Shown in pieces: positions 6,588 through 10,591 of a stretch of DNA of 20,000 nt. This DNA comes from an uncultured virus (IMG/VR IMGVR_UViG_3300023180_000040). Its lineage: Duplodnaviria > Heunggongvirae > Uroviricota > Caudoviricetes. The DNA is taken from positions 57,081 through 77,080 of IMG/VR virus record IMGVR_UViG_3300023180_000040. One strand, given 5' to 3'. The translations under genes were made by a program, and so were the position numbers. Numbering within the stretch: position 1 is the first letter of the stretch; every line of letters starts with the position of its first letter. The notes beneath the pieces are model-generated. The model worked only from the letters and a program-made list of their open reading frames with translations, searched no databases and was not told the origin of the DNA.

Positions 6588-6615
6588 CATAAAAGAGGGG
6601 GATTGCTCCCCCTCT
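6588..6615 (-). terminator. Intrinsic (Rho-independent) terminator, possibly bidirectional
   Basis: - strand AGAGGGGGA-GCAA-TCCCCCTCT-TTTATG: 9-bp stem, GNRA loop and T tract, just after the stop at 6632. Confidence 0.85.
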
Positions 6616-6631
6616 CATTTTATACTTTTAT

Positions 6632-9281: not shown

Positions 9282-9431
9282 CTAATCCTCCTTGATTTCA
9301 GGGACGCAGGAACCACAGTAAGGAAGCCCCTCTGTCCAAGTCACAGCCTTAGTTGCTGGATTGACATAAGTAACATCCTTCTCTGGAATGGTGTGTCCAC
9401 ACATGCATTTGATTGTGTCTGTATTGTCCAT
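9282..9431 (-). CDS. 49-aa zinc-ribbon-like protein
   Basis: GAAAGGA RBS; KCMCGH...PYCGSC; first gene after the tRNA-like RNA. Confidence 0.7.
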   Translation of the reverse strand: MDNTDTIKCMCGHTIPEKDVTYVNPATKAVTWTEGLPYCGSCVPEIKED

Positions 9432-9457: not shown

Positions 9458-9555
9458 AGCCCCTAGCGGGAGTCGAACCCGCGATAAACTTCCGCATAAG
9501 CATCACAAGCGTCCTTGTGTGATACCGGCGTCGTTGCCACTAGACCATTAGGGGC
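9458..9555 (-). ncRNA. tRNA-like RNA without a canonical anticodon arm
   Basis: 7-bp acceptor stem GCCCCTA/TAGGGGC; D arm GTC-TAGTGGCAAC-GAC; perfect T arm GCGGG-TTCGACT-CCCGC. The anticodon region is replaced by a long hairpin. No encoded CCA. Confidence 0.8.
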
Positions 9556-9561
9556 ATAAAT

Positions 9562-9589
9562 ATTATAGACGGTTCCACAGTCAAGTCAA
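9562..9589 (-). promoter_or_regulatory. Sigma70/SigA-type promoter of the tRNA-like RNA
   Basis: TTGACT (9589-9584), 16 nt, TATAAT (9567-9562); G9555 is 7 nt downstream. Confidence 0.8.
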
Positions 9590-9679
9590 GTGGTGTCACC
9601 AAATTGGATCTACACCTACCTGCTCACCCGTCACCGACAACCGATTCCTTTAGTTATTATATTTAGTTATATTATGTAG

Positions 9680-9846
9680 CCCGAACAGATCATTATTCGG
9701 GTTGTTATCACATGGGTCGTATTGCAGGTTTATGTCAGGTCTAGATGGACAACCCCCATGCGTGTTGCCCCCTGCTTTCCCCCGTTGCCACGGAGTTCGG
9801 ATTATCTAATTGGTGGCAACCTCTTAGACTCTCCCATAATCCCGCT
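9680..9846 (-). ncRNA. Putative structured RNA downstream of the hammerhead cleavage site
   Basis: ORF-free; stems GTTGCCAC/GTGGCAAC, GCAGG/CCTGC, GGGCAAC/GTTGTCC and CCCGAA/TTCGGG; loop pairing CGCATGGG/CCCATGTG. Confidence 0.5.
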
Positions 9847-9894
9847 GACGCCTCACGGCGTTTCGTCCTCTTTAGGACTCATCAGAGCGGTTAT
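9836..9894 (-). ncRNA. Type I hammerhead ribozyme
   Basis: CCGCT-CTGATGA-GTCCT(AAAG)AGGAC-GAAA-CGCC(GTGA)GGCG-TC^-AGCGG: complete catalytic core and three perfect stems; GUC cleavage between 9847 and 9846. Confidence 0.95.
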
Positions 9895-10063
9895 TGTTTT
9901 CAAGATCATACTGAACCAAGTTAGCAATTTCAAGTGCCCTACGAATCTCACTCTTAAAACCCGGTGTAATAACAATAGTGTCCTCTGGCTGACTGTCCAT
10001 GCAAATAGCATTTAGCCATCCAATAATTTCAGCAAGTTCTTGTGCCTCTTTTAGTGTAATCAT
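9872..10063 (-). CDS. Hypothetical protein whose last codons form the hammerhead core
   Basis: MITLKEAQEL...NNNRSDES*; codons CGC TCT GAT GAG TCC TAA overlap the ribozyme. Confidence 0.6.
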   Translation of the reverse strand: MITLKEAQELAEIIGWLNAICMDSQPEDTIVITPGFKSEIRRALEIANLVQYDLENNNRSDES

Positions 10064-10108: not shown

Positions 10109-10525
10109 CTATCCGTAAACGATGTTTCCGAAAGTAGCAACCTGAACAACAACATCAGCAACATCACCATCAGCGTAACCAGAATCGTCGTTAGCAACAG
10201 CCTGACGAAGATACTCAACGAGATAATCCGCAGCCTGAACCTCGTTGTTGAGAATCTTAGAGATTGCCTCTACAACCTTATCTACATTGACCTCATGAAT
10301 AGTGTCTGCCTCGTCAGGCTCACGAAACTTTACTGAATACCAAATCTCATCAAGAATGTCGCTTGCGTTATTACCCTCACGACTAAGATAGTTTGCCCAA
10401 TAGTTTGCGCTGCCGTAATGGGAATCAAAAGCCGTCATAAGAAGATCACTAACCAACTTGTCCGTAACATTTACAGATACAGTTACCTTACCAACAACTG
10501 TCTTATTCATTTCATTCTCTTTCAT
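10109..10525 (-). CDS. Conserved phage hypothetical protein
   Basis: NYWA motif and C-terminal DGDVADVVVQVATFGNIVYG, recognised as a recurrent phage family; start could be 10510. Confidence 0.75.
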   Translation of the reverse strand: MKENEMNKTVVGKVTVSVNVTDKLVSDLLMTAFDSHYGSANYWANYLSREGNNASDILDEIWYSVKFREPDEADTIHEVNVDKVVEAISKILNNEVQAADYLVEYLRQAVANDDSGYADGDVADVVVQVATFGNIVYG

Positions 10526-10538
10526 TAGATTGCTTAGT

Positions 10539-10591
10539 ATTTTACTCGTATACGTTTTGTTGTCAAGACATAAATGTAATGACTTTGTTAG
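10539..10591 (-). promoter_or_regulatory. Boxed early promoter, copy 4
   Basis: CTAAC AAAGTC ATTAC-N9-TTGACA-16 nt (..GAG)-TAAAAT. Confidence 0.8.

Follow-up and report, generated by a model that had tools for sequence, protein, structure and literature searches.

A hammerhead ribozyme, a structured RNA and an anticodon-less tRNA-like RNA in series in an uncultured phage, with a core motif shared with mycobacteriophage tRNA arrays

An uncultured phage carries, in series and in the same orientation, a type I hammerhead ribozyme, a structured RNA of 291 nt (9846-9556; z = -3.2 against shuffles; the middle RNA in the following) and an anticodon-less tRNA-like RNA. All three elements had been claimed in the original prediction and are confirmed by sequence and fold. 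We give about an even chance to the reading that they form a self-processing unit in an early-type array of small genes, releasing two stable non-coding RNAs with a ribozyme-made 5' end. This is an amended version of the maturation model first proposed, amended because the tRNA-like RNA is probably a product in its own right and the middle RNA is bipartite.

Genomic setting and relatives

The window, i.e., the whole stretch of 20,000 nt that was analyzed, forms the final 20 kb of a virus record of 77 kb (G000), which is 48% complete. The best cultured matches of its DnaE, in Rhodococcus and Gordonia phages, reach only 32%; salt-marsh sequencing runs are the best carriers of the window stretch, with 11 of them flagged as possibly its source. 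The cassette belongs to an array of small minus-strand genes that has host-type promoters (Table 1), about 56 kb from the 11 canonical tRNAs of the record. The promoter that had been placed upstream of it is present, and a scan of the window finds no terminator-like site between 10539 and 9458. Elsewhere in the window, a bidirectional terminator-like hairpin (6589-6618) closes a segment of the minus-strand array. The tRNA region of the record (G000:C1 6253-12970) also encodes UDP-galactopyranose mutase, deaminase, SpoU methylase, ribonucleotide reductase, and dUTPase, and some of its tRNA genes have TATAAT shortly upstream of the 5' end.

Table 1. Features of the cassette and its surroundings (window coordinates), and copies of a hairpin motif in mycobacteriophage records
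Feature	Position	Strand	Evidence
Sigma70-type promoter TTGACA-16-TAAAAT, heads operon	10539..10566	-	11/12 match
138-aa ORF, phrog_2355, function not assigned	10109..10525	-	
63-aa ORF through hammerhead core, ends ...RSDES stop, stop codon in loop II	9872..10063	-	homologues with 53-98% identity
Type I hammerhead ribozyme, predicted cut 9847/9846	9842..9890	-	consensus core, fold, Rfam hit; kept in L277 and L300
5' domain of middle RNA	9724..9845	-	z -3.8; kiss test
Window-specific insert: strand 9716-9711 able to pair with P4 loop 9760-9755; hairpin 9701-9680	9680..9720	-	
A/U-rich single-stranded linker, SD-like AAGGA at its end	9646..9677	-	A-rich in three variants
3' core motif	9568..9642	-	invariant in 3/3 cassettes; also in mycobacteriophage tRNA-array spacers
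Internal sigma70-type promoter TTGACT-16-TATAAT, predicted +1 = G9555	9562..9589	-	11/12
Anticodon-less tRNA-like RNA	9458..9555	-	fold, ARAGORN
49-aa Cys-rich ORF downstream	9282..9431	-	79% homologue
Hairpin motif copies	L549 1500-1531; L394 1482-1512; L541 369-402; L550 338-370; L542 575-609		

At least three distinct cassettes carry the middle RNA: that of this phage (several near-identical assemblies), L277 and L300/L523. They come from a metagenome search, and their number is a lower bound. The original prediction expected the three elements to co-occur in relatives, and the order hammerhead, middle RNA, tRNA-like RNA is the same in all three distinct sequences. L277 is syntenic with the window at about 70% identity. 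L300/L523 represents a related phage, in which many core proteins are 70-91% identical and the flanking genes are different. The homologue of the phrog_2355 ORF lies upstream of the cassette in L277 and downstream of it in the L300/L523 type; the 49-aa Cys-rich ORF has a homologue at the same position in L277, where L300 has a different Cys-rich ORF. Halves have been exchanged among the variants, the window and L300 sharing the 3' half, and L277 and L300 the 5' half.

Beyond these, BLASTN of the cassettes against 50,697 GenBank phage records gives only short hammerhead, tRNA-arm, or chance matches. A scan for a hammerhead plus GAAAGCAG (at least 117 stretches) finds this phage only among the matches listed, and a scan for elongated tRNAs (28 stretches) finds this phage only. 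A core scan of species genomes (at least 120 stretches) has, among the matches listed, none to the middle-RNA profile. Full-text searches, with few subscription papers among the texts covered, list no description of the cassette combination or of the core motif; motif catalogues in supplements could bear on this novelty. Likenesses to K-turn, 6S and SRP RNAs, judged by eye against consensus sequences, are not supported by Rfam.

The hammerhead ribozyme

The ribozyme is made of stem I (9890-9886/9846-9842, 5 bp), the core CUGAUGA (9885-9879), stem II (9878-9865), GAAA (9864-9861), stem III (9861-9848) and a GUC cut site. It is the MFE structure (z = -3.4), and the features of type I (core CUGANGA, GAAA, NUH, stems I-III, stem I open) are all found in it and likewise in L277 and L300. 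The cut proposed at 9847/9846, and with it a ribozyme-made 5' end, is well supported by this anatomy. Hammerhead cleavage leaves a 5'-OH end. Pattern scans of G000 match no other such ribozyme. An Rfam comparison had been suggested with the original prediction; it returns the hammerhead (RF00163, 28.5 bits, E 1e-4) but under the gathering score of 34, which nothing in the whole window reaches, and no family for the middle RNA. Over all three variants RF00163 gives 28.0-29.0 bits (E about 1e-4), again under 34, with an Rfam model whose stem III is shorter. The RAGATH-1 hammerhead and other RAGATH motifs are rejected (RF03152 22.2 and 16.1 vs 56.3 bits needed), the middle RNA falling in none of these families.

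About 440 nt had been described as nearly non-coding. This holds for the middle RNA, in which a conserved peptide is rejected (neither strand has a conserved ORF across the three variants), but the 63-aa ORF overlaps the 5' half of the hammerhead and terminates 25 nt ahead of the cut. Its homologues P0004-P0006 end in LSGE, not RSDE(S). In all three cassettes an upstream ORF crosses the hammerhead core in the same frame, and in L300 this ORF is unrelated.

That an upstream ORF ends inside the ribozyme in the same frame each time, once as an unrelated ORF, would suit a cis-acting element. Cleavage, perhaps ribosome-gated in loop II, would then yield a protected structured 5' leader that stabilizes or controls the downstream mRNA, and the tRNA-like fold would be a processing site on that mRNA. 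No terminator stands ahead of the downstream genes, and it has been proposed that the hammerheads of prophages divide long transcripts into mRNAs of gene length (Perreault et al. 2011, PMC3088659). However, RNase P cleavage, or else the internal promoter, would part the middle RNA from the downstream mRNA, the downstream genes differ between variants, and the 3' core is found in tRNA arrays without an adjoining gene. We hold this explanation to be quite improbable.

When 400 nt of downstream RNA are added, the probability of stem I is at most 0.06 in all three variants, and in L277 and L300 the drop has occurred by 130-250 nt. Because stem I is out-competed by downstream RNA, cleavage should be co-transcriptional, and folding calculations thus suggest that the hammerhead probably cuts during transcription.

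Among 91 other phage type I hammerheads surveyed, SD and ATG within 60 nt (37 of 91) are the usual layout, and a filter for P1 plus kiss (see below) is passed, weakly, by one. In two other phages, L519 and L522, a gene comes directly after a hammerhead of this type, without the middle RNA. Further hammerheads were noted in passing. One phage contig (L062-L064) carries several near-identical type I hammerheads, mostly with SD and a gene close behind. Type I hammerheads are found within phage tRNA clusters in L022, L032, L042, L069, L072, L073, L080, and L120, and in L069 and L073 the 3' strand of the ribozyme continues into tRNA-Tyr-like sequence. A recurring element of hammerhead-like make-up, in which GGA/AGA follows GAAAC and stem III is not obvious, possibly a permuted hammerhead, lies just ahead of ATG in L011, L012, L024, L031, L038, L045, L050, L071 and others.

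The 5' domain of the middle RNA

The middle RNA has no Rfam family at E<=10 in the window, and none in the other variants. It has two parts, a 5' domain and a 3' core, and may represent two modules and not a single RNA of 290 nt. In the 5' domain, the first bases after the cut pair with a strand 110-130 nt downstream (P1, 9845-9835 with 9734-9724 in the window) and close a multibranch domain in all three variants, with P1 sequences that are unrelated between the window and L277/L300. Inside lie P2, P3, GAAA and P4. The loops of P2 (9819-9814) and P3 (9790-9785) form a 6-bp loop-loop kiss in all three variants, UUGCCA/UGGCAA in the window and CUACCA/UGGUAG in L277 and L300, with two double-sided changes; only 4, 6 and 1 of 300 shuffles of the three variants reach such a kiss. 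The z values of the domain are -3.8, -4.1 and -5.7.

A descriptor derived from the three cassettes has six distinct matches in 1.45 Mb of loci, i.e., the three cassettes and three others, and shuffled sets give 2 and 1. When L277 is compared with L300, pairing holds in 75 of 76 cells, and 3 of the changes are double-sided. The original prediction looked to covariation for support. Pairing-preserving changes are indeed present, but covariation is not significant (82 of 500 shuffles are as good in the two-sequence comparison of L277 and L300), since in the at least three distinct sequences two 5' halves are alike and two 3' halves are alike. A covariance model of the L277/L300 5' domain does not find that of the window. 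A shared architecture of the 5' domain across the variants is supported, and a possible common ancestry would rest on topology and loop sequence. The window-specific insert has no counterpart seen in L277 or L300.

The 5' end has a rival long-range fold with the 3' block of the core, which is about as stable as P1. The ensemble energies of the P1 and core-block folds in the three variants are -92.6/-93.3, -68.0/-68.5 and -84.3/-88.0 kcal/mol, with the kiss not counted. Both pairings of the 5' end beat shuffles modestly (7-85 of 2000), the targets having been chosen after inspection. In these models a working state with P1 and a separately folded core is favored, because the core folds on itself in mycobacteriophages. 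A bolder and, in our judgment, unlikely idea is that the ribozyme releases a bistable RNA, perhaps gated by translation of the overlapping ORF, whose freed 5' end would either close the kissing-loop domain or invade and switch off the 3' core. The core would then be an unrecognized functional RNA (decoy or catalyst) that cluster C and M mycobacteriophages share in their tRNA arrays.

The 3' core and mycobacteriophage tRNA arrays

The core consists of two invariant blocks (9642-9630 and 9579-9568), paired in a short helix that holds a U-U mismatch and an internal loop rich in purines, and of a variable hairpin (9622-9587) on top. Its sequence, GGUUGUCGGU...GGAACCGUC, is also present in cultured mycobacteriophages, where it lies between tRNA genes. 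Scanning for the second block together with a T arm finds 8 viral loci, and in one the first block also lies just upstream; this locus matches Rey, between tRNA-Pro and an unannotated Ser-type tRNA. The carriers are Rey, Reindeer, LilhomieP, prophi86-1, and Asterius, with variants of the core in Reindeer, prophi86-1, and LilhomieP. The copy of Asterius stands between tRNA-Cys and tRNA-Glu and is identical in Bxz1; among 72 records matching its 61-mer, 67 (Bxz1 included) carry at least 80% of the length. Four of five phage records matched with one copy each, three being carriers known beforehand and Asterius new; Bongo has only a looser hairpin and no core match.

In eight distinct sequences, 18-19 nt are near-invariant. 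The alignment has 95% of its cells paired, and 19 of 500 shuffles are equally high. The distance from the core's 3' end to the tRNA is 3, 3, 3 and 7 nt in Rey, Reindeer, LilhomieP and Asterius, and to the tRNA-like RNA of the cassettes 10-12 nt; no annotated tRNA directly follows the core in prophi86-1.

The chance rate of the two-block pattern is low. Its 11 matches in 401 genomes of one actinobacterial order (roughly 2 Gb, an estimate) are read as chance because all lie in open frames of at least 347 aa and none of the fetched 3-kb stretches holds a tRNA. A covariance model of the core gives 19-27 bits for the cassettes (L300 not listed) vs 14-23 bits for chance matches and adds nothing beyond the blocks. 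The core was not found in two Streptomyces phages or three tRNA-rich IMG/VR records, it is absent from the stable-RNA regions of T4 and T5, and Rfam holds no family for it or for the Rey spacer. In G000 and rRNA, no antisense target stands out for these blocks. A resemblance to a 16S rRNA helix is rejected, as 2733 of 5000 random helices are equally good.

Near-invariance of this extent, more than pairing needs, together with a position 3-12 nt ahead of a tRNA or tRNA-like 5' end in seven of the eight sequences, would agree with a processing device that sets the 3' end of the middle RNA, either a small new self-cleaving RNA or a nuclease or antitermination signal at tRNA leaders. We think this very unlikely, considering that no Rfam ribozyme family matches, that prophi86-1 departs from the position, and that each phage record has one copy even though the array of Rey has many tRNAs, which is odd for a general processing signal. 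Least credible of all is a decaying relic of a tRNA-array fragment beside an ordinary hammerhead, with no present function. The 3' domain alone does fold no better than shuffles (z -1.3, -1.2, +0.3), but the invariant blocks, the pairing-preserving changes and the kiss are kept while the flanks are only about 70% identical (L277) or unrelated (L300).

Several features of these tRNA arrays were noted in passing. An uncatalogued hairpin motif of 31-35 nt occurs in the tRNA-array spacers of cluster C and M mycobacteriophages and is a candidate RNA family. In Rey and many records of clusters C and M, a Ser(CGA)-type tRNA is unannotated or lies under a CDS labelled hypothetical (L539 3043-3126, which is Rey; L540 about 520-603; L544 503-587). 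Long folded-looking non-coding spacers separate cluster M tRNAs (L541 480-630; L543 336-490; L542 610-780; L540 605-770), and two of these spacers open with a similar hairpin.

The tRNA-like RNA and the internal promoter

The tRNA-like RNA has an acceptor of 7 bp (9555-9549/9465-9459), a D stem of 3 bp with a GG loop (9545-9543/9532-9530), an elongated arm with a GACG tetraloop (9528-9492), a canonical T arm (9482-9466), and the discriminator U9458, while CCA is not encoded. The anticodon given by ARAGORN is unstable (Cys in one run, Val in another), and the 5-bp anticodon stem with 7-nt loop of a decoding tRNA is found in no variant. The 7-bp acceptor, the 5-bp T stem, the GG of the D loop and the UUCRA of the T loop are found in all three. 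The elongated arm with its GACG tetraloop is present in the window and L300; the counterpart in L277 scores 43.8 bits on RF00005 and has a truncated anticodon arm of 17 nt. Acceptor bases, discriminator (U, A, U), and length of the anticodon arm vary between variants and the D and T loops are kept; such variation speaks against a decoding role or a constant amino-acid identity. The absence of CCA is not a defect, because none of the 11 phage tRNAs encodes CCA and the phage has a CCA/poly(A)-type nucleotidyltransferase (PolyA_pol/tRNA_NucTran2_2 protein, G000:C1 18552-20534).

The internal promoter, which ends 6 nt ahead of G9555, belongs to the only five sites of the window with an 11/12 match. 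It is kept in L300 and lost in L277, i.e., present in two of three variants. Judging from the sequence, the tRNA-like RNA is probably a product, beyond being an RNase P signal, since it has its own promoter in the window and L300. The original prediction, in which the two flanks may form a maturation system for the RNA between them, missed this promoter; it is partly supported, by the conserved order and the ribozyme-made 5' end. RNase P is reported to recognize the elbow and the shape of the acceptor-T stack (PMC4919913). As the 7/5 acceptor-T stack and the elbow are kept, and L277 lacks the internal promoter, a 3' end of the middle RNA made by RNase P at 9556/9555 is plausible on this model.

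Two known RNAs of similar shape were considered and rejected. tmRNA does not fit (C3-G70 not G3-U70, D stem present; Rfam 18.6 vs 47 bits, anchored on the T arm), nor does Y RNA (YrlA; 14.5 vs 69 bits, T and D arms in tRNA order, no GNCGAA motif seen). A Ro60/TROVE gene is found in none of the three records, whose completeness is 48-70%. The elongated-tRNA scan also brings up further tRNA-like RNAs of phages in which the anticodon arm is abnormal (L132, L137, L143, L153, L154).

RNA contigs and possible separate modules

Four of six RNA runs were examined, all as contigs, which cannot show ends, strand or level. Contigs inside the middle RNA are found in X17 (9630-9802) and X23 (9610-9834) and in neither X14 nor X21. 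No contig crosses the hammerhead cut, joins the middle RNA to the tRNA-like RNA, or covers the latter; RNA libraries can hold DNA, and coverage gaps are not read as absence. A contig in two of four runs is a weak hint that the middle RNA is expressed.

A mosaic of modules offers another reading, in which an ordinary hammerhead of the kind trimming early phage mRNAs and a stand-alone tRNA-like gene flank a 5' domain and a 3' core that are separate small RNAs cut out of the A-rich linker, so that no single 290-nt RNA would accumulate. The internal promoter aimed exactly at G9555 in two variants, the swapped halves, the core alone in mycobacteriophages, and the same hammerhead without middle RNA in L519 and L522 all argue for it. 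On the other side, the order is fixed in all three cassettes, P1 depends on the cut end, L277 does without the internal promoter, and the X23 contig runs over the 5' domain and the linker into the start of the core. The mosaic thus seems to us possible but doubtful. The self-processing unit has difficulties of its own: the contigs of X17 and X23 end at different positions, 54-74 nt short of 9556, two of the four RNA runs have no middle-RNA contig, and in two variants the tRNA-like RNA has no need of RNase P, given the internal promoter.

A proposed model of processing and function

In the self-processing unit, host RNA polymerase would start at the upstream promoter and the hammerhead would cut the transcript, with the upstream mRNA keeping its stop codon. 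Paired 5' ends resist exonucleases. The freed 5'-OH end would be buried in P1, and so stripped from the ribozyme and shielded from exonucleases, while the loops of P2 and P3 kiss. On read-through transcripts RNase P would cut at 9556/9555, giving a middle RNA of about 280-290 nt. The tRNA-like RNA could also be transcribed from a promoter of its own, which two of the three variants have, and its CCA would possibly come from the nucleotidyltransferase of the phage. Circularization of the RtcB type is without support, since RtcB is found in none of three incomplete records and the RNA contigs hold no joints.

If the RNAs are released, their likeliest role, at about even odds, is that of protein-binding decoys or scaffolds early in infection. 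The tRNA-like RNA would present the shape of elbow and acceptor without decoding or amino-acid identity. The 3' core would be a conserved binding element, which mycobacteriophages may release from between two tRNAs.

Comparison with known systems

Close precedents are the stable RNAs of the tRNA regions of T5 and T4 (T5 RNAI, RNAIII, and RNA1 and RNA2, annotated as 'tRNA-like stable RNA with unknown functions'; T4 rnaC and rnaD). Like them, the cassette has a T arm and an elongated arm replacing the anticodon arm beside folded RNAs, i.e., a tRNA frame with a non-decoding arm, and T5 RNA1 and RNA2 and T4 rnaC are precedents of the tRNA-like shape itself. Unlike them, it lies far from the tRNA cluster and begins with a ribozyme, and sequence likeness is limited to the T arm.

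With the type I hammerheads of phages and prophages (RF00163), as described in PMC3088659, the cassette shares the consensus core, the three stems, and a place at a gene end in a phage operon. In contrast to them, it continues not with a gene but with a non-coding unit of 390 nt, whose first helix uses the cut end. The mascRNA and menRNA of MALAT1 and MEN-beta, in the accounts of PMC4919913 and PMC4824109, are anticodon-less tRNA-like folds that act as RNase P sites defining the 3' end of a non-coding RNA, and the cassette may work in the same way. mascRNA, however, is eukaryotic and has no ribozyme and a triple-helix end, and the Rfam score is sub-threshold (18.4 vs 42.5 bits, L277).

The original prediction also drew a conceptual relation to theta ribozymes, which are HDV-like and proposed to process tRNA 3' trailers (PMC10879173). 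What remains is an analogy, in that both place a small ribozyme beside a phage gene of tRNA type; the ribozyme of the cassette is a hammerhead, the RNA 290 nt downstream of it is non-decoding, and no HDV-like Rfam match is found at E<=10. As for bacterial and phage Y RNAs, the YrlA of M. smegmatis has a tRNA-like domain, is cut by RNase P and receives CCA according to PMC4201824. The cassette differs in the tRNA order of its T and D arms, and neither GNCGAA is seen in it nor a Ro60 gene found in the three incomplete records.

The frame and both domains of the middle RNA are uncatalogued, while the parts have precedents in phage hammerheads, T4/T5 stable RNAs, and mascRNA-type processing. The purpose of phage hammerheads and of T4/T5 stable RNAs has been open so far, and the cassette links the two, with a ribozyme and a tRNA fold as a frame around an uncatalogued RNA. 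The core motif is itself a candidate for a new family of RNAs. The best-conserved 30-40 nt of the cassette are found again in cultured mycobacteriophages, among them Bxz1 and Rey (host laboratory M. smegmatis), which makes a finding from an uncultured phage testable by phage genetics and small-RNA sequencing.
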